Shown: piece by piece, positions 1 to 55,590 of the stretch
Numbering within the stretch: the first letter of the stretch is position 1
How the letters are laid out: each line of letters opens with the position of its first letter
Assembly: GCF_002113885.1 (NCBI RefSeq)
Contig: NW_018408465.1
Coordinates: 3,128,060-3,192,059 of the forward strand
Length of the DNA: 64,000 nucleotides
Origin: Mizuhopecten yessoensis
Taxonomy: Eukaryota
Direction: 5' to 3'
The notes under the pieces: generated by a model
The model's database searches: none
What the model was told of the DNA's origin: nothing
Seen by the model: the letters and a program-made list of their open reading frames with translations, nothing else
Program-made: the position numbers and the translations under genes

Positions 1-1059
1 ACTGCACCTTTTGGTAGGATATATAGCCAAATTCAGCACTTTGTCTCCCCCGGCCAAGTACAGACAGGGGAGATAACTGCATCAACAGAGCACCACATCC
101 CCTGTCGTACGCTGGGCAACACCCTGAAGCGCTGTTTGTTCTGTCAATTGGGGCAAGTTAAAACCAAGTCTGGCTGGAGCCCGCTCACCAGGTTCCAGTG
201 TGCTAAATGTGGTGTGGCACTGTGTCTGGGTCAGAGGAGCAGAAAAAACTGCTTTCTTAACTACCATCGATACATCAGCGCTATGCCTATACCTGACACC
301 AGGGCGATGTCCGATGCCATGAGTCATTCCTTGTCTGATTTCACAAGTCGTTCCTTGTCTGATGCCAGGGGGATGACGGATGCCATGAGTCATTCCTTGT
401 CTGATGTCACAAGTCGCTCCTTGTCTGATGCCAGGGGGATGACAGATGCCATGAGTCGTTCCTTGTCTGATGCCAGGGGGATGACGGATGCCATGAGTCA
501 TTCCTTGTCTGATGTCACAAGTCTCTCCTTGTCTGATGCCAGGGGGATGACGGATGCCATGATTTGTTCCTTGTCTGATGCCAGGGGGATGACGGATGCC
601 ATGAGTCATTCCTTATCTGATGTCACAAGTCGCTCCTTGTCCTTGTCTGATGTCACAAGTCTTGCCATGAGTCATTCCTTATCTGATGTCACAAGTCGCT
701 CCTTGTCTGATGCCAGGGGGATGACGGATGCCATGAGTCTGGCAGGGTCACAAGCTATGAGCTTATCCTTTTCTGATACCAGGGGTCAGCATGTTTCAGA
801 GGCCAGGAGTCGCAGCATGTACACCCATCAAACTTTGGGAATGGCTATGAGTCACAGAATAACTTCCCAACATGGAAATGCTACCAGTGACATTGTGTCT
901 GTACATGAAGGGTGTACAGATGCCACAAGTAGTGCCGACCTGAAGTCGTCTTCTGGTGACAGTGCAGGTCAGAGTATGCTCTCACTGGGTATTCCAGGAG
1001 ATGCTGCGAGTCACAATGTGTATCCAGATCCCGCTCTTAGAGACGGAACAGATCACTAG
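1..1059 (+). CDS. Alternative terminal exon E1 (5' edge outside window): piggyBac-type Cys-rich zinc domain plus a long Ser/Asp/Met-rich repeat tail
   Basis: Frame 1 is open from base 1: ...EHHIPCRTLGNTLKRCLFCQLGQVKTKSGWSPLTRFQCAKCGVALCLGQRSRKNCFLNYH..., then SLSDARGMTDAMSHSLSDVTSR repeats, stop TAG at 1057-1059. Acceptor not visible. Confidence 0.8.
   Translation, partial: TAPFGRIYSQIQHFVSPGQVQTGEITASTEHHIPCRTLGNTLKRCLFCQLGQVKTKSGWSPLTRFQCAKCGVALCLGQRSRKNCFLNYHRYISAMPIPDTRAMSDAMSHSLSDFTSRSLSDARGMTDAMSHSLSDVTSRSLSDARGMTDAMSRSLSDARGMTDAMSHSLSDVTSLSLSDARGMTDAMICSLSDARGMTDAMSHSLSDVTSRSLSLSDVTSLAMSHSLSDVTSRSLSDARGMTDAMSLAGSQAMSLSFSDTRGQHVSEARSRSMYTHQTLGMAMSHRITSQHGNATSDIVSVHEGCTDATSSADLKSSSGDSAGQSMLSLGIPGDAASHNVYPDPALRDGTDH
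290..785 (+). repeat. In-frame coding minisatellite in E1 (about 42- and 24-bp subunits, about 66-bp higher unit)
   Basis: Repeated tccttgtctgatgccagggggatgacggatgccatgagtcat and tccttgtctgatgtcacaagtcgc; reading frame preserved throughout. Confidence 0.85.
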
Positions 1060-2320: not shown

Positions 2321-2411
2321 TTAACTCGTTCACCCCTGAAGACGCATTTGAACTCTTCCAATTCAATGGTTGAAATAGTTCACTGTGAAATTTCAGGGGT
2401 GAATGAGTTGA
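2321..2411. mobile_element. About 90-bp MITE family A (TTAA-flanked, TIR CTCRTTCACCCCTGAA)
   Basis: ttaa-ctcgttcacccctgaa...ttcaggggtgaatgag-ttga; homologous copies at 26637-26727 and (inverted) 28787-28877. Confidence 0.75.
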
Positions 2412-5330: not shown

Positions 5331-5737
5331 GTAGAGAGATGGCGTTAGGTCAGTACTCCTTTCAGGCCCTTCATCAATCTATGTATTCAGAGGCTACCGA
5401 TTTTGGGGATCATACTATCATACGAACAGAGGGCAACAAAAACATACGCTGTGTGCTGTGTCAGGCTAATAAAAGTACCACAAAGTCCGGCTGGGACTCG
5501 TTCACCAAGTTCAAATGTTTGAAATGTCAGATTCCCTTGTGTACCACCGTATATGGAGGTAGGAAGAGAAAGAACTGTTTTGATATTTATCACCGACAGT
5601 TGATGGGGATGCCCCCTATGACCCCTGCTCCCAATGTGCCCCAGCAACCATGGCAACAATTGGCTTGGCAACAAGAATCCGGGCTAGATGTGTCGGCCTC
5701 TGTGGTGTATGATGCTAATAGACCTAACCCGAAATAG
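5331..5737 (+). CDS. Alternative terminal exon E4: piggyBac-type Cys-rich domain (close paralogue of E3)
   Basis: Acceptor tttttttggttctttgcag|GT (phase 1); DFGDHTIIRTEGNKNIRCVLCQANKSTTKSGWDSFTKFKCLKCQIPLC...NCFDIYHRQLMGMP; stop TAG. Confidence 0.85.
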
Positions 5738-6978: not shown

Positions 6979-7409
6979 GCCCCTTTACTCGTCTGGGTGT
7001 GCCTGAACGTATGTCCCTACCCGGGGAACTCCAGATGCTACCTGGGTTTGCTAGGGCCTTTCCAATCCTACCAGGGTTATCGGGGGATGTTCTAAAGCAG
7101 CCCGATTTTTCGGGTGAATTCCAGACCCCACACATGATTGGAGTCCGAGAGGAACATGTGCCGGTTCGTGTGGAGGACAATAAGAAAGTGCGCTGTGTTC
7201 TGTGTCAGCTCAATAACCGCACGACCCAAGCGGGATGGGCCATCTTCAGTAAATACAGATGTGCCAAATGCCATGCAGCACTGTGTATTCTCACACCCCG
7301 CAGTAAAAGGATGCGCAATTGTTTCGACACATATCATGACCAGTTATTCGGGACTGACCCTGATAGGAGCAGAAACACCTGTACCTATGGGGTTCTGGGT
7401 GATCAATAA
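6979..7409 (+). CDS. Alternative terminal exon E5: Pro-rich linker plus piggyBac-type Cys-rich domain
   Basis: Acceptor ttttctggatttttgcag|GC (phase 1); EHVPVRVEDNKKVRCVLCQLNNRTTQAGWAIFSKYRCAKCHAALC...NCFDTYH; stop TAA. Confidence 0.85.
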
Positions 7410-8965: not shown

Positions 8966-9279
8966 ACTCTGGGTACATGCCTAACAGGGACCCTGACTAT
9001 CTAAACCTTATGCAATGTTACAGCAGTCTGGCCATGCAACACCGACCCATCCGCAACGAGGGCTACAAGTACAAATGTTGTGTCCTCTGTCAGATGAACA
9101 AGGTCAAAACAAGGTCGGGATGGCGCGTGTACACGCATTTCAAATGTGAACGATGCAATGTGCCCCTTTGTGTTCGGGAGAGGAACTGTTTCCTGGAATA
9201 TCATAACATGATGTTCAATGACAGGAAGCAGGAAAGTTCCCACATACCACTTCCTCCATGGAAAATCAACAACTCCTAG
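8966..9279 (+). CDS. Alternative terminal exon E6: piggyBac-type Cys-rich domain
   Basis: Acceptor ctttttcccatttcag|AC (phase 1); QHRPIRNEGYKYKCCVLCQMNKVKTRSGWRVYTHFKCERCNVPLCVRERNCFLEYH; stop TAG. Confidence 0.85.
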
Positions 9280-10632: not shown

Positions 10633-10904
10633 ACTGGACTGGTGACTGGCTTGGTAGGCCTGCCATGGACATAGATAGCATACCGGTATCGAATCACAGG
10701 CCGGTCAAAATAGAATCTAACAAAATTCGTCTGTGTATTTACTGCCGTCACAATAGAACGAAAACAAAGTCGGGGTGGAAGGTGTATACGTCATACCGGT
10801 GTGACACCTGTCAGCTCGCGCTGTGTACCACTAGAGAACGCGACTGCTTTCACATCTACCACAGAGCTTTACTTCAGTCTAAGAACAAACTGTTGCAGCA
10901 ATGA
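10633..10904 (+). CDS. Alternative terminal exon E7: piggyBac-type Cys-rich domain
   Basis: Acceptor cttgtttattttcag|AC (phase 1); NHRPVKIESNKIRLCIYCRHNRTKTKSGWKVYTSYRCDTCQLALCTTRERDCFHIYH; stop TGA; AATAAA at 11223. Confidence 0.85.
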
Positions 10905-13248: not shown

Positions 13249-13790
13249 ACGCTGCTCATCCCTATAACATTGACCTTCAGGGAGATAGGCAGACGGTAGT
13301 GGGTAGTGTAGTTAGCAGGCAGGGCATGTTTCAAGGTCAAACTCGAGGTCAAGCTTCTGACCACTGGGGAGTTCTGCCTCCTCATCCTGTGGGTGTACCA
13401 AGACTCCTTTCAGAAGTAAAGCATTCTTATGGTGTTGGCGCACAATTTCCTTACTCAGTTCAAACTCCTATGTTCTTTGCTGATGACAGTAATACTGGAG
13501 AAAAGAGGCAGTATATGAACCTTTCTGAGCCTGGTACTGGTCAAGGACAATGTTTAGATGGCTCTATAACCTCTTCCGGGAGCATGAGTGGACATCGGCT
13601 TGTAAGAAACACCGGGACGCGGTATAAACCCTGTGTCTTGTGTCAGTTAAAGAAAGTTCGCACCAAGTCGGGATGGTACGTGAACACGTACTTTAAATGT
13701 CTTGCTTGTGACGTGCCACTGTGTAAAAGTCCTTTAAGGGACTGTTTCCGGCAGTACCATAACTATATTGAACCACTTGACAAATCCTGA
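13249..13790 (+). CDS. Alternative terminal exon E8: long linker plus piggyBac-type Cys-rich domain
   Basis: Acceptor ttctttgtctgctttcag|AC (phase 1); GHRLVRNTGTRYKPCVLCQLKKVRTKSGWYVNTYFKCLACDVPLCKSPLRDCFRQYH; stop TGA; AATAAA at 13925. Confidence 0.85.
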
Positions 13791-17818: not shown

Positions 17819-18084
17819 GCAATATGTCATCGATCCTGCATGGAAATAAGGTGCACTACGTGGTGAAGGGGACTAAGTATAAACGGTGTATGTACTGTCA
17901 GATTCACGGGGTGAAAACCAAGTCAGGGTGGTATTCCTACACCTTCTACAAGTGTGCGCAATGTGATGTTCACCTGTGCTGTGGAAAACGCACCTGTTTT
18001 ACAGACTTTCATAGCACGCAATATCCTCATTTCAATGCACGGAGATATATATCTGGCCCCGCCCAACCAGACTTTCCTCAATAG
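17819..18084 (+). CDS. Alternative terminal exon E9: piggyBac-type Cys-rich domain
   Basis: Acceptor tctttgtttgtgtttcag|GC (phase 1); VHYVVKGTKYKRCMYCQIHGVKTKSGWYSYTFYKCAQCDVHLCCGKRTCFTDFH; stop TAG. Confidence 0.85.
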
Positions 18085-21896: not shown

Positions 21897-22986
21897 GTAC
21901 CATTATGAATGAAAGTTTGGATATTTGATGACGTAGATAAATTCTGATGACGTAGTATAAGTCGTGAAGACAATATGTGATGACGTAAAAGCTGACGTAG
22001 ACGTATGACCTGCAGATATAAGGTGTAATAATGTGGAGGTATAACATCTGATGACCGTCAATGTAAGCTTTATGCAACGCAATCTTGTACGGGTTTACAC
22101 CCTAGGGCAGTTGGAAGTACTGTACTTGAAGAATTGATGAGCCAGTAACCACGTTATATAGTTAAAATGATGAAACACGTCCAGTGAACGATAGTCTGAA
22201 TTTGCGATCTAGGAGTATATTTGCACTGTTATATTTCATTTACTAATGGTCGACCCGGGGGTCCTAGACACTACAAAGACATATATGGTTTCAGACATTC
22301 TGGGGTTACTTATGAGTTGAGCCTCAACTTGTATGAGAGGTCTACCTTCAGAATAAATCTTAACAACAAATTGGATTCGTCTTTTCCTTGTTTTGCTTTT
22401 GTCATAGCAGATTTGTCTTATATATATACTTTTGAATGTTTCTTTAAACTATTTTTCTGGGAGTTTCTTTTTCAAATATCGAAACAATAGTTAAAATGGA
22501 GATTTAGAAAGGTTTTGTTCAAATAAAAAGTTCAAATGAAATGCGAGAGATGATACACTTAAAAATGTGCTTCACCTGTGAGTGAATCTCAGCTAGTTCT
22601 AAGTCAGTCATGAATAGTGACTCATATTTCACATTTTCACAATTGAAAAAGTAGCTCTGCATCTTCCACTCTACCACTGTTTTCATGGCAATGACTACTC
22701 CTAGGGGTATTGCACTGTTAACTGTACACACAATTGGATACAACTACCCTTTCTTTCAAAATGTTGAATTCAAAATCAATCCTGCTGTTCTCATCTGAGT
22801 TTTATATGACATACAATGATTTCAAAACATCGAGTAACTTTGTTCTCGACCGTTAGTCCTAATTCAGATGGAAACACAAGCTTGCTTGTACTTTTTTTCA
22901 TTGATGATCTACCCATCTCAAATATCTATCTGTCGCCAAACGTAAGGACCACCTATGATAATTGAAGCTGTTTTTTGTGCTTGCAG

Positions 22987-23435
22987 GATTGTCCAGTACA
23001 TTCCCCACCTACACCAGTGCCCTACACACAGAAGGTCAGCCAGTCACCGGCCAGTTTCCCTCCAGTGTCTTTTCTTCCTATCTCCAAACATCACTGTCTA
23101 ATCTCCCTCAGCCCACGTTTATGGGGCACCCAGCCAATATGCCTCACCAATTCCCCAATACATATCCCAAGGAAACTGGTGGTGATTATTCAAAACCTTT
23201 CCCTAAACTGGGAAAGGACGATCCCGGGAGCAGGGAGCATAAGATTGTCAGAAATACGGGTACTAAGTACAAGACGTGCGTATTCTGTCAGATGAGGGGC
23301 GTGAAGACAAAGTCTGGATGGTACTCCTATACCTACCACAAGTGTGAGGCGTGCGACGTGTCACTATGTAAAGGCAAACGGAACTGCTTTGAAGAGTATC
23401 ACCGAGCCTTTGGGATCAAACTCGACTGGTATTAG
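22987..23435 (+). CDS. Alternative terminal exon E10: Pro/Ser/Thr-rich linker plus piggyBac-type Cys-rich domain
   Basis: Acceptor ttttttgtgcttgcag|GA (phase 1); EHKIVRNTGTKYKTCVFCQMRGVKTKSGWYSYTYHKCEACDVSLCKGKRNCFEEYH; stop TAG. Confidence 0.85.
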
Positions 23436-24911
23436 TCATTTCACACTGAGAAGGGAAAGCATTACTGGTATATCATTCATTTATTAATGCTGATCACCAG
23501 ACTGAAGGCAGTGTTACTACAGATCACATGTCACTGGTTTTCACCGACCATACAAGTCGGCCTGCTGATTATTCCATCATTTTGCTGATCAAACATCGAC
23601 AGGGTTTTGTAGCAATTCCTTGTGTTGCTCATTAAAGAACAGCGTTGCAACAGGGATGTACCATTACTGGTTTAGTTATTGGTGATGTTGTGAAGAGATC
23701 GTATTAAGACTATCGTCCACATTGTGTCTCTTAACTAACACTAGACAAAATGTATTACATTGACCAGAACTAGGAATCAACATTGACCAATTAGTATGTT
23801 ACTTACATCTTACAACATGGTCAAAGTATTCGGGTGATATGACAGAGAAATGATGCAAGGCTTACCCTAACATGTGTTATAAATGTATCTCCGATGTCAA
23901 TTTAAACCACGAGAAAACAAGGATTATAAACCACGAGAATACATTGGTGATATGAATATAAATATTGAGAATACCTTGATGTATCATACATGAGTGTGTT
24001 AGACATGGGAGTTGTGACGAACACCTTTGTGTGGGTGATTTGTATACGTGTTGACTAATTTCTTGCCTCTGTGTGACAAGTTAAACGTGACAAACATTAA
24101 AATATATGAGTGCAATATTTACATCAGGTATTAAAATTTGAATTGTGATTACCTCTGTGAAAATGTACATTGACTTTCTGTAATTTGGACACAGTGTGCT
24201 TCAACGGGTCAGTTCCAAATGACCAAATGTTCTAGACGTAGCCTGCTAATGTCAGTCAGTTTAGTTTAGTACTTGCGTACCAATACCAATATCAGGCGAT
24301 ACACTACACCTGAATGCACTGTGTAACAGGTTCTGTATATATATATTAGTTGTCAATAAAAAAAAACATCACTGTAGTTCCGTTTTATCTTGTATTTAGA
24401 AAGGAAAGACGAGTATTTTAAATGTACAATATTGATTTTAAGATATGTTGAGCTTTTTTCAGAATAAGGATTAAAACCCGCGTAGTAAAGATGCTTACTA
24501 TGAACACATCAGGTTGTGTAACATTAAAAAAAATGTATAATGAATGTCAAACACCACATCCAATGTAGCTGAAACAATTTCCAAAGTCGAATAGGTTTGA
24601 TATAAAATGTTCTTGTGTATTGCACATTATAGAACACATTTGTGGGAATGCCAGGTGTAAATTTTCTGTTAATGAAACCACTATTTACAAAAAACATCTG
24701 TAATGACATCGTATCGGTGCCTCCAGAGGCCACAAGATGTGATGTTAGTACCCGCAATTTATATATACCAAGACCATATCTCATACACAGCAAAGTTAAA
24801 ATAAAAAAAATTGTCATGTTTGTATAGAATTGTGAGGCCATTTTTTATACCGCAACCTCTTTGGGGGAGAGTCACATGATCTGTTTTATTGATCTTATCA
24901 CATTTGATAGA

Positions 24912-25132
24912 GGCCACGGTGGCCGAGTGGTTAAGGTGTCTGTCCCTCTACAATCACTAGCCCTCCACTACTGGGTCGCAGGCTCGAGGCATACATAGGG
25001 CAGTCGCCAGGAAATGGTCGCTGACCGATGGTTTGTCTCCAGGTACTCTGGTTTTCCTCCGCACAAAAACTAGCTCGTCCTTAAATGACCATAGCTGTTT
25101 ATAGGACGCAAAACATAAGTAAACAAAACAAC
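24912..25132 (+). mobile_element. tRNA-derived SINE (V-domain-like body)
   Basis: Pol III box A ggtggccgagtggttaagg, degenerate box B ggctcgagg, body ggtttgtctccaggtactctggttttcctcc, 3' tail gtccttaaatgaccatagctgtt..ataggacg followed by an aaac-rich end. Confidence 0.7.
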
Positions 25133-25642
25133 ATTTGAAGGGTGTTGTACAATCACAGAACCTTTATAGGAAGTGTTTTGCTAAACAATGTGTTTTTTTA
25201 AAGGGCATTTTAAGTCTGATTAGATCATGTCTCCTTATTGTATTGTGCTTAAGATTGTTGTCGATAATGATATTGAATTCCTTCAATCTGTTTCTTTCCG
25301 TTAACCGTCTTTCTGTCTCCCTTTTTTTTCATATGTCAAAGCTACCAGGTAACCAATTTACAGCTAGTGTAGGTCCATTTTGAAACGGATGTAAACAATG
25401 TATAGTTATTCACACATTAACAGTTTATATTTTTCAAGATTGCATATGGAACAAAAAAAAGGGTTGCATTTTTCTACGAGAATGGTCATCTTAACATGTG
25501 TAAACATACAGCGCTTATCCTAAAAATGGACCCTCCGAGGTCACTTTTCCCGTCATCATAACTGCTGTATTAGTTAGTATTGTTTGACATATTTATGTGT
25601 AGCCTTATGGACTCTAATTACCATCTCGCTTTGTCCTTTCAG

Positions 25643-26049
25643 GCCCAGGTCGGGCTGATCCGCACCGCGATTTTGGCGCTCTGGGTATTGGCAGCGATCC
25701 AATGGGGATCGTACTCACGGGCAGTCTGATGTCTCCTCAAATAGGCGACGTATCGTCCGCACACCACAGTCTCTACCTTGCTGACCAGAAGGACAGTTTA
25801 CTTATGTACCACAGGCCAGTGACGGCGAAGGGATACAAGAAACCATGTTTGTTCTGTCAGATCAACAACGTCAAGACCAAGTCGGGATGGTACACCTACA
25901 CCTACTATAAGTGTGAAGCTTGTGATATCCCGCTCTGTCAACCTCAGGGCAAACGAGATTGTTTCGTGCGCTACCATGAATACTTGGCTGCCGGTCAGAG
26001 CAAATCTGAACCTGATGCGACTCATAAGCATTCGTCCGGATATCTGTGA
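25643..26049 (+). CDS. Alternative terminal exon E11: piggyBac-type Cys-rich domain
   Basis: Acceptor ctcgctttgtcctttcag|GC (phase 1), with ctctaat branch-like motif upstream; YHRPVTAKGYKKPCLFCQINNVKTKSGWYTYTYYKCEACDIPLCQPQGKRDCFVRYH; stop TGA. Confidence 0.85.
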
Positions 26050-26636
26050 CTGAAAAGCAGCAATACAGATTGGAGTGTTTAACGACTACACACAGTCTGA
26101 TCTGACCTGTATATGAATCCTTGCCGAGGCTACAAAGCCTTCATGGAGGTTGTGTTTGTCTAGGGATCACTTAATGTGACACTGCATGTCTTTATATCAC
26201 CAGTAATGTAATTATGTTCTTCGAGCAATAATCCCAATGGCTAGTCTTGAGAATGTGGTAAAATATGTACCTTTATTGAATTATACTAGTTGGGGTATTG
26301 TTTGTCATTGATCTACATACCTAGCGAGTGGAAGGTTCCGACACACGTAGTGACTTTATTTAAATGAAACCATGTCTTTTTTTGTAATGGTTAATAAGGA
26401 TTATATTTGAATTTTGCAGAAGGAACTTTTATACAAGTAGAAAAATATGTCTTAAGGTAAAGGGAACCGTACGATTTAAATGTAATATTACTGATGACAC
26501 TGTTATGAAATATTTGCCTCTTATTTTTCTGCTTTTCATTGTACAGATTGCAGTTATTCTAAAATTTGTTAATGTTTTTTTTGGAAAAAAAATGATTGAT
26601 AAACAAAAGAAATAGGGGAACATGCCATGAGTCAGA

Positions 26637-26727
26637 ATAACTCATTCACCCCTGAAGACACATTTGAACTCTTCCACTTCAAAGGTTGGAATAGTTCATT
26701 ATGAAATTTTGGGGGTGAATGAGTTAA
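26637..26727. mobile_element. MITE family A copy
   Basis: ataa-ctcattcacccctgaa...gggggtgaatgag-ttaa; homologous to 2321-2411. Confidence 0.75.
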
Positions 26728-28786
26728 AATATGTGCTGCCTCACTCCGTATTTCTGGTAATTGTTTTTTTCTTGGCATATCCACTACCAATCCCACATAT
26801 TACAAATGTTGCTGCAATCAACAGTTTGTAATTTCACTGTTTCAATATGAAATATGCTTACATTGCAAAGGGAAGTAACTCTTGCTTTATCTGGAACTCT
26901 TCTTTGCAATTAGAAGTGCTGAGGTGGTACCCTTAACCTTAGACACATGTTTCACCTATCTGTATATACCAGTTTGAGGGAGTTGGTCAAAGCAAAACAA
27001 AAATGAGCACAATTTTAACGAGATGTTCAGCGACAGGAAGTACAGATCTGATTATTGTATGTTGTTTATTAGAATCATTTGATTGAGGGTCGACTATGAC
27101 AGCAGATAGAATTTGCACAGAGTACGATGTGTTATAGAATGTGATCGAAAAAAGTTCTTCATCGCAGACATTTTCTGTTGTTTTGGAATTCCTTCAAACT
27201 ACTGGTGACATTTCCTGATACGTAGTTTTGGATGGGTTTTACCATTTACCATTTACCAAATGATTATCGGATAGACTATATATATCAGTGGCACACAGTT
27301 GGTATTTGAAGACCGTATATATATATTATAGTTTAGTTAAATATATATAGCATTTAGCTTTTTCAACATATTTATTTGTTGGGATCTATTGTCATCTGTC
27401 AACAAACGGCAAATCAAAGTATCACAGAATCCAAGCATTTATGACCATATAAGGTTGTTGACGTCCAGATTGACCAAGTATGTGAGTGTGTATTGTATGA
27501 CGATTATCATGTTGAATCCCAGGACACGTTTGTCCCGTTACCTGTTGTAATCACTATGTAAATATCACCAATTTAAAATATACCTTCAGATGTCATTGAA
27601 TGATTAAGTGGTATACTATTAGATACAACCACATCATACTGAGGCTATTTTAGCGGACCTTACTTGAAGAGCTAAATTTGCTTTGGTTATGAGAATGAGT
27701 CCATCGTCCGTCATCAATTTTTCTGTAGAATGCTTTAATTTAGTCCAGAATAGCTGGTCGGTATTACCTAAATCTAGTAAAGAGCATCCATTGGTGAAAA
27801 TGGATTCAATGTTAAATAAAAGGTAGGCTGTGACTTTCGCTTGTGACACGTGGGCAGAGGGGCGGGGTCGAATATTGGAAATAGTTTCAGTAAGCGATAA
27901 TTAATCAGACTTGGTGCCATACATTAAGGGCTGATTTGAGAGAGCTGCTGTGGTGTCTTATTTTCACTTCTCCATTTCCACAATGGTGACTTTACAAAAA
28001 TAATAGTTGTAAAGAGTGCCTTTCTGCTGATAAAGTGTTTTTTTCGGTCATTCAAAATTAAACATGAATACCTGCTCTCTGATTGGTTTAGAAATTTCAG
28101 CGTTTCAATTTCTAACTGTTGAATGAAAACCGGAATTGATAGGAATTACATTCCTGAGCAGGTGATGTTAATAACAGTATTAATTGGAAATCTGAAGATG
28201 GCCACCTTGTCTTAAAATAGGAGAAATAAAGCCTTTTCTTGTCTAATTCAGATAGAAACATGTTAGCAAATACTATGCCATAGACGTTTTGTTAACGGTA
28301 ATTGACGATGCTTTAGATAACAGTTTTATTCTTTATAGAAAATTATAATGATGTTTCCGAAGATACCTGTCTACATGTTATTACTCTCCCGGTTGTATAT
28401 ATTCATGAGTTTAATGTCAAAGATGTTTCTTGCTATTTTTTGTCACAAATGTACGCACATACTTATTGTAACAAATTTCATATAACATGATTCTTTTTAT
28501 ATCTAATTGCCATAGACACGTTTCACTGTTATAGTAGTGTTGTAAAATTGTTCATTCAAATATGTAACATTTAATTTTTCTTATGACCAAAAAAAGGAAT
28601 TTTCTGCCCAAATTTATCGGTGGTTTATCTTTCTGAATGTGTCACTGATGACTTTATGATTTTGTAGAGTTGAAAGTTTTACATATTATATGACACCAAA
28701 TTGGAGATTATATACATGCTTAATATGAAATATATATATGACACTAGACAGGTTACCAAAGCTATGTTTCACTTAGTAAACATGTT

Positions 28787-28877
28787 TTAACTTGCTCACC
28801 CCTGAAATTTCATAATGAACTATTCCAACCTATGAATTGGAAGAGCTTAAATGTGTCTTCGAGGGTGAATGAGTTAA
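28787..28877. mobile_element. MITE family A copy (inverted orientation)
   Basis: ttaa-cttgctcacccctgaaatttc...cttcgagggtgaatgag-ttaa; internal sequence is the reverse complement of the other two copies. Confidence 0.75.
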
Positions 28878-29675
28878 AAAGGAACATATTTTTTTTCAGG
28901 GACTTTTAAGGCATTAAGTATGTTTTAAGCGAAACCAATGTGTCTTGTACCTGATGATCTTTTTTATGAAATCTAAGTCATTGTTCCTGATGAAGATTCA
29001 AGTGAAATTCATTTCTCTTGTTTAATTAATTTTAATTGAAATTAAAATTGTTTTGCCAATTGAAAGTTTAATTGAAGTCAAAGTCTTTAGTGTCCTATAA
29101 CTTTGCATCTTTTCAAAGTCATTTACATGCCATCTTTTCAAGGATCAACATTGTTTCCTGGAAGGGGGTTCTGTTGTGCTGTGTTGCAAAATCTTACAGT
29201 TTTTAAGATCGTAAGAAGGACCCATGTTTTGATGAAATTCCATGGTTTAAGCTGTTCTATGCAATGAATGAATTTAACTTGGATTTTGATGAGGGGGACG
29301 TTGGAAGTTTCTATTCATTTGAAATTGATTTCTGTTTACAAAACCTTGTCATATATATCACTCGTGTTCCTACATGTGCAAACATTAAATGTGTTGTGAT
29401 TGTAATAAACTGTAGCTAGAGATAAACAAGGTGTTATGTGTTTTGTTTGCACATTAAGCGTGGTGGACCGGGAGGGACGCTTTAGGCTGAGGACAGCAGC
29501 CTGATTTTGAACATACAGTGTATTATAAGTTATACACGTAATCAGAAGTGCTTGTATGAAGAACCATGATTATCATTCTCATTACTGGTTATCACATTGG
29601 GTTGGAACTGATCATACACGTTTTAGTAGAAATTAAACTTTTGACCAGCAGTGTAAATCTAGCAGACGATACAGT

Positions 29676-29865
29676 TATTCCGTCTTTGCGTATTGCAGAG
29701 TTATCTTCTCTTGGGAGCAGGTATTGATTGTTACGTCACTTGTTTGTGAGAGAAACGTCATCAATTTTTGAGAAAACGACGTAATTTTCTCACACAGACC
29801 AATGACTTAACAATCAATACCTGCTCCCAAGAGAAGATAACTCTGCAATACGCAAAGACGGAATA
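29676..29865. mobile_element. Palindromic (hairpin) MITE, about 190 bp
   Basis: tattccgtctttgcgtattgcagagttatcttctcttgggagcaggtattgattgtta is exactly reverse-complemented at the right end (about 58 bp), with further imperfect pairing inside; TA at both termini. Confidence 0.85.
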
Positions 29866-30144
29866 GTAGGCAGAACACACAACCTAACATGCCGTCACCA
29901 GGTTATATACTTTGGACATCCTTGTACACGCATACAAACATACATTGTCTGTTTGCTTGACATGACGGCTTTTCTCTTGTCTGAATTTATCCTTTATTCG
30001 GTCGAGAATCCGAGTTTAAATCTGAAAATCATTAGCATATGTTAAGTTTTAAATAATATATTTTGCTCCGAATATCGGCAAAACAAAATAACACCATTGC
30101 TAATACGCAGTATTTGACAATTCAACTTCTGTTTTGGTTTTCAG

Positions 30145-30491
30145 GCAAGAATGCCCGCGGTCTGGAGCAGGTTGTTGAACAGTTGCGGGACAGACAGGGA
30201 CAGGTTCAAGGCTTACATCTGAGTTATGTCCCCGGAAGTTCCGTACAACACACCGCCCTGCCCTTAAAGCACGACGAATTTGATACAAAAATCCACCGGC
30301 CGGTAACCACCGCAGGATATAGAAAGCCATGTGTGTATTGTCAAATCAACAAAGTGAAGACCAAGTCTGGCTGGTATACCTACACCTACTTTAAATGTGA
30401 GGCATGTGACATCCCACTGTGTAAAGGCAAGAGAGACTGTTTCACTCAGTACCACAACTACCTAGAATGGGGCGGACACGATATCAAGTAA
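30145..30491 (+). CDS. Alternative terminal exon E12: piggyBac-type Cys-rich domain (close paralogue of E11)
   Basis: Acceptor cttctgttttggttttcag|GC (phase 1); IHRPVTTAGYRKPCVYCQINKVKTKSGWYTYTYFKCEACDIPLCKGKRDCFTQYH; no Met in the ORF; stop TAA. Confidence 0.85.
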
Positions 30492-32780: not shown

Positions 32781-33124
32781 GGTCGCACAGTCAAACAAAC
32801 GAAAGATCACGATATGGTACGGTCCGTCAAGGTGCCTACCCCCTCTCTGGTATTGATCATGGGATGGTTCAGCACTTACCAATCGTGATGGATGGACCGG
32901 GTGCGTACAAGAAGCCTTGCGTTTGGTGCGAGGTAACGAAGGCGCGGACCAAGTCCGGGTGGTACATCTACTCACGGTATAAGTGTAGCCAATGTGACGT
33001 ATCACTCTGTACCGGAAGTCGGGGCTGTTTCACCGCCTATCATAACAGCTACCTGGGCATGCAGCATGCTAGCCCCCACCATCCAAACCAACCCGCACCA
33101 ACAAACCAAGGACAGACCAAATGA
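32781..33124 (+). CDS. Alternative terminal exon E13: piggyBac-type Cys-rich domain
   Basis: Acceptor tttattatgcttgcag|GG (phase 1); QHLPIVMDGPGAYKKPCVWCEVTKARTKSGWYIYSRYKCSQCDVSLCTGSRGCFTAYH; stop TGA. Confidence 0.85.
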
Positions 33125-42983: not shown

Positions 42984-43195
42984 AAATACGTCGCCAGTTG
43001 TTGAAGACGCACCAGATCCAATGCCCGGTATGTAAGAAGGTTTTTAACCGGACGTATATCCGCCAGCACCTGACGAAGCACGGGGAAGCAACGCACTCCT
43101 GTCCAATGTGTGGTCGTGTGTTTGTGTGGAAGAGCTCCTTCGACCGCCACAAGCGTACGTGCCAGTACAAGAAAGTCTACATGACTTTTAACTAG
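42984..43195 (+). CDS. Alternative terminal exon E15: C2H2 plus C2HC zinc fingers (last cassette seen)
   Basis: Acceptor tgttttaaattgcag|AA (phase 1); IQCPVCKKVFNRTYIRQHLTKH-GEATHSCPMCGRVFVWKSSFDRHKRTC; in-frame stop at 42974 upstream and no ATG before the fingers; stop TAG. Confidence 0.8.
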
Positions 43196-52285: not shown

Positions 52286-54689
52286 ATTACATAACTGTGT
52301 AGGGTTATTGGAAGGATGATACATTTTCTCCAGATTTCGAACATCAACAGACAGATTAAAATCCTTACGACAGTTGACGTGTTGATATAAACATTGATTC
52401 TCTCCACTATTTAATGTTGAACGACTACAAGTCACAGTCCTCATTCAATCGTTGTCTCAATTGACCCTTCATTTCACGAACATAAGTAAAACCTGGAATT
52501 GAACGTCTGGTATAATCTTGTAAGTCATGTCAGTAACAAGTAATCTTGAAGTCTTAAATTTCTGATAAACATTTCTGAAATGCTGCCACAGTATGAAGTG
52601 TCTAAAAGGTGAACCACATCGCTTAGATCAGTTTGACAGGGTTTCATACCTACAAAGGAGTCTTAATCTTTAAAGGAAAAAAATACCTTCAGAACTTTGG
52701 GCATGATACTTCTAAATTTAAAATGTAAAAATATCAACATATTTCATCTAGCAAGTTTTGCAGACTTCAAAACTCAAGAAAATATGTTTGAAAAAGTTAT
52801 AAGCATCGATTTGAATTTGTAATTGTATTTCATTAAACCATCTAGCTGGGTTTTTTCTAAGAAAACCAGTGACAACCTTGTTTTGAAAAGTTACCTGGCG
52901 TCCATGTTGCAGAAGATGAATATAGATGTTAATTTAGATTTAAAACGAGATTAACCAGGAATTCTAATATTGCATCATCGAACAAGGCCATGTTAGCAAG
53001 AAAACCCCAAAAGAGAGGGTCACCATTGGATACGGTCGGTCAGGGTGTACGTTAATAATACAGCGTCACCTCTTTCTGCCAATCAAACGGTGTTATACTC
53101 ACTAACATCTGGAACAAAAGAAAAACGAACGGGAGCTAATTTTAAATACTGGATGTTGAGAATGTACCATCTTTATTTACTGCTGATTTTGACACAATCG
53201 AAATAAGTTGATCCTTTTAATTATACCATGACCAAAATTTCAAATATTTCAAGCTAAGACACAGTTTTAGGCCTTTTTTTTCTTTCTTTAGCTTCATAAC
53301 CAATTAAAATTCTTGAAAAAGTTCAAAATAGGCGTTTAAGGTTTGTAAGTTAGCACTATATTTTGATTCCAGAGTTTCAAAGGTACCAACTAAAGCGTTT
53401 GTTTTTATCTAAAACATCAATATGAATATATGTCCGTGAAATGGTTTTTGTAGCATTATGCTGTCTCAGTGAGATAAACATATTTCGTCAGCTTAATATA
53501 ATACTAGGATACGTTCCTTAAGTACAGATTTACATTCCAAATATTTTCAAGTCAGAAAAAAATGTAACGTAAAATAATCAAACGAGAATCATTAGAATCG
53601 ATTTAGAATGGACCAAAGGAAATATTACATCTGGAGTAAATCATTTAATTGTTATATTTCTGTCTTGAACAAAACCCATGTGAGCACTACAGACAATTTA
53701 CCAAATGATCATAATATGTTACTCTAGTAATGTAATTGTTATTTTCATAATACTAAGTGGTGTGTGTGTTTAGATGGATTTCCTTATTGGATAATCTGTA
53801 CAAAATGGAATGTGAAATAATTTGGGTGAAGCAATATTGCATCCTGTTACATCATAACTAGTGACTACTCTCAGTGAGATTTTTTTTATTTCCATTTGGG
53901 AAGAAACAGGCCATGAAGGACGTTGGGTGAAGATAACGTAACCATGTAATCAATCATAGCAACGGAAAGAGAAGTAACCCAGCAACAGTCATCACTCTGT
54001 ATCACAAAAAAAGATGCCGCCTTTACTGCTTAGAAAGTGATTTGTCTCCCTTTGGTACCTACGTGTGGATTATTTGAGCGACAACTGTGCAATCATATCT
54101 TGCAATCTGAGAAAGCAAGGAATACTTTATTCTGTTGACTACAACATATCCTACCAAGCCTGTGGGTGATGTACGTAAGTGTACAATATTCTGACAATGA
54201 CGTCAGATGTAGCGGCAGTAACCATCAATTGATGAACTTCAGTTTATGAACTGACTGCGGTCGTATAATCTGCAATCATTGTAAATTTCATGTTTTTAGT
54301 GGGTTTTTTTTGGAATTTTGCCTTTAGGTTAAGTATAATGCCAATTTCTAAACTGCAGCGTTTTGTCCAAATGAGCACTTGATTAAAGTTGAAGTAAAAT
54401 TACAGTATTTGAATTGCTGAGTTACAAAACTTTTATTTCCCCCCCATAAATTCCTCATCGAAAAGATGTAAGAAAGGAAGCAGTGAAAATAAGAATGCAA
54501 CATTTTTTTCATAAAAATATAATCGATTTAAAAAATAAAATTATTTGTACATCGATTAATTTATTTACATTCCACAAACCGTAAGTCCAAGAAAAGAATT
54601 GATAACAACATGTGTGATAAATTATAGTTAAATGATATAACAACAACAACATTTCCAAATGTTTAATAAAAGTGGGCTAATAAGGATAC

Positions 54690-55590
54690 CAAACTCTACT
54701 CCCTTCACTTGTCGATAACACTAACTATAATCTTCGAAACGTTGAAAACTACAACCTACCTAACAACAGACTTGAATTATCTTACGTATCCTTTTTCCCT
54801 TCTACTGTTAGACTGTGGAACCAGTTACCTACTAGTATACGACGTAGTGCCACGTTCTCATCATTTAGAAACGCCATTCAAGACGTAAACTTGCCGCTTG
54901 TACCAAACCCCTTTTCCTGTGGTTAGGAAAAATAATATTTTGCATACAAAATTAAGAAACCGTTCTAGTACTTTGAAAAGTGACCTGTTTCGTGTTAACC
55001 TCATTGATTACCAACGTTGTATATGTGGCTTCCCTATTGAAGACACACACCATTTCTTTTTTACCTGTGATATATATAACGAACAAAGAATTAAGCTTTA
55101 TCGTGAACTGAATGAATACATGCCTCTTAATTTAAATCTACTTTTATTTGGAGATACATCTCTTTCGGAACAGGAAAACATAACGATATTCATGCATATT
55201 CAGCAATACATTCGTGACTCTAACAGATTCTAGTACCCCGCCCCCCTTGTCCCCTCTCTCTCCCTCTCTCTCTCAATTGAACCATAATATCCACTCTCTC
55301 TAAGAGGCAAATACTATATGTCATACATTAATAATGATGAGGATGTATGTATTATAATTACAGACTATTATCCCCCCCTCTCTCTTCCCCCTCCCATCTT
55401 TTCTCTCTCTGTCTCTCTCTTATAATTTCAATTTATAATTAAAGCATTTAAAAATTAAATAGTGTATATATGTATATTAATTCTGCCATCTTGTTGTAAT
55501 ATTGTAAATATATGCTTGTAATTTGCTAGGAAAGGGCTTAATATAAGTTTGATAACTTGTGCCCAATCCATTTGCTTGGCTAAACTAAAC
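54690..55590 (+). mobile_element. 5'-truncated CR1-like LINE remnant (ORF2 C-terminus with frameshift, plus 3' UTR)
   Basis: NYNLRN...SFFPSTVRLWNQLP..., frameshift near 54920, then NILHTKLR..S.LKSDLFRVNLI...CICG..IEDTHHFFFTC..Y...R...LLFG...LS...N..IF..IQQYIRDSNRF (stop 55233). Confidence 0.8.

Follow-up and report, generated by a model that had tools for sequence, protein, structure and literature searches.

The genome of the scallop Mizuhopecten yessoensis contains, on contig NW_018408465.1, a stretch of 64,000 nucleotides (positions 3,128,060 to 3,192,059 of the forward strand; below, the window) in which an original prediction, made from the letters alone, had recognized 13 cysteine-rich cassettes, E1 to E13, and had argued from a codon comparison of two of them, E11 and E12, that they are translated, functional exons. 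The window was found to fall in an array of alternative endings that belongs to a BTB gene, here designated D, whose constant exons are located 36-38 kb to the left of the window. The elements on which the argument turns are the following (coordinates that begin with G000:C5138 refer to the window's contig, all others without a prefix to the window).

G000:C5138:3089821-3092213, plus strand: constant exons of gene D, which end in a phase-1 donor
25643..26049, plus strand: E11, last exon encoding a 134-residue tail, composed of a linker and an HC6H finger (ligand core 25810-25977), with its own stop codon
30145..30491, plus strand: E12, last exon encoding a 114-residue tail, with an HC6H zinc finger at 30294-30455

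The assignment of E11 is based on a phase-1 acceptor, a match to Pfam zf-Tnp_2 (E 1e-8), and a RefSeq model, isoform X20 (XP_021368250, our P0140).

Gene D and the BTB gene cluster

The front half of the gene D product is constant and 577 residues long, with a Pfam BTB domain at residues 21-123. Downstream, ca. 36 endings were found, of which 28 encode piggyBac-type HC6H zinc fingers, six encode C2H2 fingers, and two are without an assigned family; the first two endings gave no Pfam match at E 0.01 and, although BEN-like by eye, were left unassigned. Each ending has a phase-1 acceptor and its own stop codon.

A genome search with E12 returned 65 matches, mostly to the two strands of the contig that holds the window, and 462 kb of this contig were read for an inventory of the cluster. 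Trans-splicing between strands, suspected from the presence of cassettes on both, was dropped, as the minus strand proved to carry two BTB genes, A and B, and the plus strand two paralogues of these, C and D, each with an array of its own behind it. Every one of the four has two BTB exons and a linker exon, followed by a downstream array of endings on the same strand. The zinc-finger frames in the 462 kb comprise 58 intact cysteine-rich domains (CRDs) and 93 C2H2 frames, 151 in total, and apart from the intact frames no broken CRD copy was found there. Without exception, the 151 zinc-finger endings follow a BTB gene downstream and share its strand. The donors of the four genes are all in phase 1, as is the best-scoring acceptor upstream of the domain in 148 of the 151 frames (51/53 in gene A, 17/18 in B, 46/46 in C, and 34/34 in D). 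Other endings of the cluster match BEN, zf-C17orf113, and DUF3504 in Pfam, several of them under the curated cut-offs.

Gene D corresponds to LOC110459972 of the Mizuhopecten yessoensis RefSeq annotation (100% identity), with isoforms numbered up to X36. The 31 isoforms compared all contain the 577-residue front, and their tails map to the gene D array; 11 of the 13 window cassettes, E11 included, are represented by RefSeq models, and E7 and E12 are not among the isoforms listed. Splice junctions were read from contigs that overhang the acceptors. A contig of run X9 has 23 loose letters ahead of the E12 acceptor, and a contig of run X7 has 27 ahead of the E13 acceptor; in both cases the letters are the end of the constant exon of gene D, and not of genes A-C. 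Since they match the donor of gene D (G000:C5138:3092213), the introns are 65,990 (E12) and 68,626 (E13) bases long. Contigs of run X5 start two bases before the acceptors of E10 (at 22985, with 27 unplaced letters) and E11 (at 25641, with 24 unplaced letters), and no junctions were seen in runs X1 and X2. An architecture in which a single BTB gene uses E11 and E12 as alternative last exons is almost certain.

The choice of an ending would be explained most simply by cis-splicing that competes with polyadenylation on a read-through transcript. Both junctions read are compatible with this, the nearest upstream constant exon being used in each case, although contigs cannot reveal joins between alleles. 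Alternatively, the endings may be transcribed from promoters of their own and joined by trans-splicing, as reported for lola and mod(mdg4) (excerpts of PMC11426971 and PMC4667647). A cis transcript that extends to E13 must pass ca. 31 upstream endings, all of which have AATAAA or ATTAAA at most 2 kb from the stop, and some RNA contigs begin upstream of acceptors, both of which speak for trans-splicing. Yet contigs also span intronic stretches, as read-through transcripts would, and cannot reveal starts, while the same-strand layout of the entire cluster does not require trans-splicing. We consider it rather unlikely; it concerns the splicing step only and would be compatible with the function proposed below. 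A scan for docking and selector sequences of the Dscam type, which did not cover G-U pairs or distant sites, gave no signal above background: among 7-9-mers able to pair with the initial 1.5 kb of the gene's own common intron, none stood out against the introns of other genes, used as controls.

The remaining endings found in the window are listed below (P numbers are our protein handles; percentages are identities of counterparts in the scallops Pecten and Ylistrum).

1..1059, plus strand: E1, alternative last exon; its acceptor (G000:C5138:3128052) precedes the window by 8 bases; P0142; HC6H zinc finger at 133-267, with a coding tandem repeat behind it; Pecten 81% over 85 residues
2055..2254, plus strand: E2, short HC6H exon of another class; RefSeq isoform X36, P0123
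3158..3468, plus strand: E3, HC6H last exon; RefSeq P0135; Pecten 75%, Ylistrum 68%
5331..5737, plus strand: E4, HC6H last exon, tandem sister of E3 in the tree; RefSeq P0005; Pecten 80%
6979..7409, plus strand: E5, HC6H last exon; RefSeq P0138; Pecten 80%
8966..9279, plus strand: E6, HC6H last exon; RefSeq P0137; Pecten and Ylistrum 91%
10633..10904, plus strand: E7, HC6H last exon with a phase-1 acceptor; Pecten 92%, Ylistrum 90%
13249..13790, plus strand: E8, HC6H last exon; RefSeq P0010; Pecten and Ylistrum 77%
17819..18084, plus strand: E9, HC6H last exon; RefSeq P0134; Pecten 78%
22987..23435, plus strand: E10, HC6H last exon; RefSeq P0004; Pecten and Ylistrum 84%
32781..33124, plus strand: E13, HC6H last exon; RefSeq P0127; Pecten 70% over 92 residues
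40032..40252, plus strand: ending with two C2H2 fingers (Pfam) and a phase-1 acceptor; Pecten counterpart 88%
42984..43195, plus strand: C2H2-type ending (Pfam), the last found in the array; RefSeq P0136; no counterpart among the fetched isoforms of other scallops

The in-frame tandem repeat in the tail of E1 (window 270-610) extends this ending to ca. 350 residues, the Pecten match being limited to the first 85. Elsewhere in the cluster, genes B and C start head to head ca. 5.3 kb apart (G000:C5138:2955440 and 2960781), which suggests a shared promoter region. A lone CRD-like ending at G000:C5138:2989699-2990085, situated amid the C2H2 endings of gene C, is without the TKSGW loop of the other cassettes, forms a long branch, and failed the test for the HC6H ligand pattern; it is possibly a separate capture. 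Seven related long frames occupy the far ends of the gene A and B arrays (G000:C5138:2756540-2781233 and 2883002-2906222); all four that were scanned match DUF3504, and BTB-DUF3504 isoforms are annotated. DUF3504 is linked to Crypton elements. At G000:C845:259872-271597, one more divergent BTB exon is found on each strand (44% and 35% identity), and the pair may mark another such locus. In more distant proteins (P0292, P0300, P0311, P0312, and P0325) the BTB domain is in the C-terminal half and the N-termini differ; P0311 and P0312 have their C-terminus in common, possibly a mirror design with alternative first exons.

Codon comparison, conservation, and transposon origin

E11 (25810-25938) and E12 (30294-30422) were compared codon by codon by the Nei-Gojobori method. 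The counts in the original prediction proved exact: of 43 codons, 36 encode identical amino acids, 17 of these through synonymous codons, and seven are replacements (A/T, K/A, K/R, L/V, F/Y, N/K, and Y/F); the 43 codons end short of the last two zinc ligands, so that the ligand set is covered incompletely. Codon position 3 accounts for 21 of the 29 base differences. The proportions of synonymous and nonsynonymous differences (pS and pN) were 0.68 and 0.08, respectively, which corresponds to rates dS of 1.8 (near saturation) and dN of 0.086. The resulting pairwise dN/dS is 0.048 (Fisher P 1e-10; bootstrap 95% range of pN/pS 0.04-0.23). In 20,000 neutral simulations the number of identical residues never exceeded 31, as against the 36 observed, and pN was lower than pS in all 66 pairs formed by the 12 window cassettes of TKSGW type. 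A blastn comparison of 2 kb around each exon returned only a 135-base match over the domain and an 18-base match (E 0.14), so that the linkers and introns of E11 and E12 are dissimilar, as had been claimed. All 13 window cassettes are indeed open frames, each with the eight-ligand pattern H-CxxC-CxxC-C-C-H. They do not form a single set: 12 are of TKSGW type, and E2, shorter and without the TKSGW loop, belongs to another class.

E2 is 63-67% identical to dispersed genome copies that are C-termini of piggyBac transposases (67% to the end of L045-L047). It stops at the same position as the transposases, with similarity confined to the finger, groups with transposase ends in a quick CRD tree (support 92), and has no counterpart among the fetched Pecten and Ylistrum isoforms. 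E2 is likely a separate, later capture of a piggyBac transposase C-terminus. When E2 was compared with a transposase C-terminus from the same genome, 34 of 51 residues were identical, 16 of them encoded by synonymous codons, with pN/pS of 0.28. Selection during transposon life can therefore leave the same trace as that seen between E11 and E12, and the codon pattern is not sufficient by itself as proof of function. Two further piggyBac transposase frames, L041 and L042 (G000:C5245 and C4518; 479 and 569 residues), have an HC6H finger with a long TKSGW-like loop, 36-38% identical to that of E12, and may be relatives of the donor lineage.

The conservation of the array was assessed by one-way best hits to incomplete isoform sets, orthologues being compared between species as proteins and not as DNA. 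When 29 isoforms of Pecten maximus and 28 of Ylistrum balloti were compared, a clear best-hit counterpart was found for 31 of the 34 zinc-finger endings of gene D. E11 is 89% identical to its Ylistrum counterpart over 130 residues, and E12 is 88% and 85% identical to its Pecten and Ylistrum counterparts, respectively, over 115 residues, the linker being included in each case. Other scallops thus possess intact counterparts.

It could be argued that the cassettes are piggyBac remnants, with a low dN/dS retained from transposon life, that are now occasionally spliced without function. The codon signature of E2 fits this idea, and single endings are lowly expressed. Still, within the first 4 kb of the window the similarity to transposase frames L041, L042, and L045-L047 is confined to the finger of E2, so that no DDE_Tnp_1_7 core is seen beside E2; the other cassettes have no transposase-like long frame beside them, and in Pfam the window cassette frames match the zinc finger only, with no transposase core. 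The lack of broken copies, the uniform splice phase, and the high identity of the E11 and E12 counterparts, linkers included, likewise argue against remnants. We regard this explanation as very improbable, though it may hold for E2 alone. The cassettes are domesticated transposon sequence, since their domain is transposon-derived, and conservation suggests that they are translated. The status of E11 and E12 as functional exons rather than transposon debris is settled by splice junctions to the constant BTB exon (E12 and E13), the RefSeq model of E11, and intact scallop counterparts, beyond what the codon count could provide.

The HC6H finger and its proposed function

Pfam zf-Tnp_2 (PF13842, the C-terminal zinc finger of piggyBac) matches 11 of the 13 window cassettes above the cut-off; E1 scores below it, and E2 gave no match. 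The upstream His and the following CxxC, CxxC, C, C, and His are invariant in 12 of 12 aligned cassettes, and the HC6H pattern is present in 57 of the 58 cluster CRDs, the single miss being outside the window. This arrangement of ligands is that of the variant CRD of PiggyMac, piggyBat, and PGBD2-4 (excerpt of PMC8086355), named HC6H in an excerpt of PMC13461360. An AlphaFold model of E12 (pLDDT 87.9) had the piggyBat CRD as its best structural match (9c0f; Z 6.5, root-mean-square deviation 2.1, 52 residues), followed by a match at Z 3.2, with C1 domains at Z 2-3; Foldseek also placed the piggyBat CRD first (E 0.026). The cassette domain is predicted to adopt a C1-like cross-brace fold like that of the piggyBat DNA-binding domain. 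It shares with the CRDs of piggyBat and PGBD2/3/4 the eight-ligand cross-brace, the predicted fold, and a basic surface (excerpts of PMC11707139, PMC8086355, and PMC13461360), but differs in having no catalytic DDD domain, in the TKSGW loop insertion, and in its presence as 58 exons on BTB genes. The ESM Atlas returned generic BTB and zf-Tnp_2 clusters only.

In piggyBat, two CRDs jointly occupy an imperfect palindrome, the major groove being read by a loop that contains R543 and E545 (excerpt of PMC11707139). These two residues flank the six-residue TKSGW insertion of the cassettes in a weak alignment (E 0.09). The loop was followed between species in 26 gene D cassettes (43 cross-species comparisons, three scallop genera, twelve loop positions). 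No changes were found in 286 cassette-columns of the loop, versus 43 in 494 other variable columns (P 2e-9). Several loop positions are 10-27% identical between cassettes, yet constant between species, and all 26 loop sequences are distinct. Residues that set specificity would be expected to behave in this way, frozen between species yet distinct in each cassette. The 26 domains are basic throughout (net charge +3 to +11, median pI 9.5).

We propose that the endings probably give the BTB protein different piggyBac-derived DNA-binding tips, so that the gene would make a panel of DNA-reading regulators. The layout is that of ZBTB proteins, with an N-terminal BTB domain (Pfam), C-terminal zinc fingers, existing C2H2 isoforms, and predicted dimerisation. 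One of the ca. 36 endings would be spliced onto the same 577-residue front half. The BTB domain would dimerise the protein and pair two HC6H fingers, as in the piggyBat transposase dimer on its palindromic site; the loop around TKSGW would read bases, with cassette-specific residues setting the target, and mixing of isoforms through the common BTB domain could create combinatorial specificity. The array was likely founded by capture of the 3' end of a transposase gene behind a splice acceptor and may then have been enlarged by tandem exon duplication, of which E11 and E12 would be sisters, and by later uptake of another transposase end, E2.

Several points weigh against this proposal. A Z of 6.5 is under the safe level of the tool and the Foldseek E value is only 0.026. 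The mapping of the piggyBat residues relies on the weak alignment mentioned above and on an inferred numbering offset of six. The E11 and E12 loops differ by a single residue (Y/F), so that these sisters (support 96 in the quick CRD tree) likely have the same class of target, and endings need not each own one; the tree itself, based on few columns, resolves little. The splice evidence is limited to two junctions, each from a single contig at a depth of 4-8, in two of four runs whose RNA status is presumed. Raw-read runs X21, X22, and X24, swamped by three interspersed repeats, gave 0-5x cover per direction over the exons and no junction among the matches listed.

The same exon layout could serve tips that bind proteins or histone tails, making the products chromatin or insulator adaptors like Mod(mdg4)-67.2, whose C-terminus binds Su(Hw) (excerpt of PMC13490949). 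The CRD of PiggyMac, with the same ligand pattern and fold, binds histone H3 and not DNA (excerpt of PMC8086355), so that fold is no predictor of substrate, and an invariant exposed loop would equally fit a protein interface. However, the PiggyMac domain is acidic, in contrast to the 26 scallop tips tested, all of them basic; the frozen cassette-specific residues are on the loop that reads bases in piggyBat, and nearby endings encode C2H2 and BEN modules, as well as HTH_psq in mussels. We therefore hold protein-binding tips to be unlikely. Even less probable, in our view, is a role in transposon surveillance, in which the tips, much like KRAB zinc fingers, would each recognise the ends of one piggyBac family and bring in BTB co-repressors. 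The donor domain does recognise transposon ends in piggyBat, the genome holds HC6H piggyBac transposases and a 90-base element with TTAA-like ends, and E2 resembles a later capture. But an arms race would turn over fast, whereas the loops are constant in three scallop genera with one-to-one endings, and the main class is just 36-38% identical to present transposases.

Known systems, range in bivalves, and minor elements

A Drosophila locus close in design is mod(mdg4), which, like gene D, has a constant BTB front and a set of alternative 3' exons, in this case ca. 30, most of which specify the same small zinc-binding module (FLYWCH) and which have expanded by tandem duplication (excerpts of PMC4667647, PMC11426971, and PMC13490949). 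The scallop endings differ in kind, being piggyBac HC6H, C2H2, BEN, DUF3504, and zf-C17orf113 modules, and in arrangement, since each array is collinear on one strand and four paralogous genes in one cluster have more than 150 endings. No Pfam match to FLYWCH was obtained in scans of 17, 70, and 17 proteins, some unassigned cluster frames being outside these scans. The FLYWCH module is linked to Mutator transposases. In another Drosophila locus, lola, BTB exons are likewise followed on the same strand by an array of alternative last exons for C2H2 fingers (C2H2 in 17 of 20 isoforms), but its BTB is of the Tramtrack type, and no piggyBac domain is described in the excerpt of PMC11426971. According to the same excerpt, the TTK-type BTB is reported only in arthropods and was sought in Mollusca without success. 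The FxLRWN motif of Tramtrack was found in none of 315 N-termini of the family to which gene D belongs, and the 60 best Protein Data Bank matches of the scallop BTB are of ZBTB, BACH, and Kelch types (nearest ZBTB17, BCL6, BACH1, and KLHL3). Since the scallop BTB is without the Tramtrack motif, the likeness to lola and mod(mdg4) is probably convergent; the scallop locus likely works as they do, yet is no member of their group and probably has an independent origin.

CSB-PGBD3 is a piggyBac sequence that serves as an alternative last exon of a host gene. There, a single whole transposase is present on one gene; in the scallop, dozens of isolated CRD exons have been amplified in tandem. The primate CSB-PGBD3 fusion is named in an excerpt of PMC12062965. 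The RefSeq entries LOC110459972, LOC117336857 (Pecten), and LOC132565634 (Ylistrum) represent the same gene and its isoforms under the names "uncharacterized" or "ZBTB32-like"; being automatic models, they do not cover origin, layout, or function. In a survey of transposon-derived factors that includes molluscs, piggyBac and PGBD are absent from the main text, as far as the excerpt of PMC10027918 extends, and an oyster factor catalogue treats BTB gene clusters and splicing types and calls oyster BTB genes unpublished (excerpt of PMC12111275). No paper on the locus or on BTB-HC6H isoform arrays was found in a literature search that left subscription papers mostly uncovered.

The three scallop genes have at least 36, 33, and 30 numbered isoforms, respectively. 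A search of 50% representatives returned 73 proteins at E below 1e-30, and when 20 of 144 new relatives were looked up, each named record was a bivalve: Saccostrea, Magallana, Ostrea, Pinctada, Mytilus, Argopecten, Ylistrum, Sinanodonta, and Potamilus, i.e., oysters, mussels, freshwater mussels, and scallops. This range is that of the looked-up records, with clams, snails, and cephalopods outside it. Many relatives are numbered isoforms, up to X50 in Mytilus californianus. BTB and CRD were seen together in scallops, Saccostrea, Magallana, and Pinctada; in the scanned Mytilus isoforms the modules are HTH_psq, C2H2, or BEN, and in relatives grouped with freshwater mussels they are BEN or DUF3504.

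We see about an even chance that bivalves independently built a transcription-factor library locus, in which DNA-binding domains of transposons (piggyBac HC6H, Crypton-like DUF3504, Psq helix-turn-helix, and hAT-like zinc finger) are trapped by ZBTB-type genes and serve as swappable last exons. In this reading, amplification of the piggyBac finger would have given each genome ca. 60 sequence readers whose recognition loop is short and evolvable, and capture would be ongoing (E2). The piggyBac finger has so far been known on transposases and single domesticated genes; here a transposase end-recognition domain would have been turned into a large host family. If so, the array would be the natural code book of a compact programmable fold, in which loop sequences are related to their DNA targets. 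With 26 distinct, species-frozen loops, an HC6H recognition code is directly testable, which bears on the function of PGBD2-4 and on piggyBac engineering. The design of lola and mod(mdg4), treated in the excerpts cited above as a speciality of arthropod Tramtrack proteins, would extend to another BTB class, to molluscs, and to a larger scale, and the locus would offer a new system for how a cell selects one of dozens of last exons across 80 kb.

Several repeats were also observed. The 90-base element, present at window 2322-2409, 26637-26730, and 28785-28876, has inverted ends of 15 bases and TTAA-like borders; with 17 copies in the 462 kb, it is likely a miniature transposon. Read cover over this element is very deep. 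A scan of 24800-30100, in which E11 is the only cassette, showed no terminal inverted repeats or TTAA duplication framing that exon. A 190-base hairpin element with 80-base arms, 94% complementary, occupies 29676-29865. Fragments at 54684-55230 resemble the end of a reverse transcriptase of a long interspersed element (LINE; weak zf-RVT match, E 0.017), and a repeat at 24913-25110, with a tRNA-like start by eye and three copies in the 462 kb, is probably a short interspersed element (SINE).

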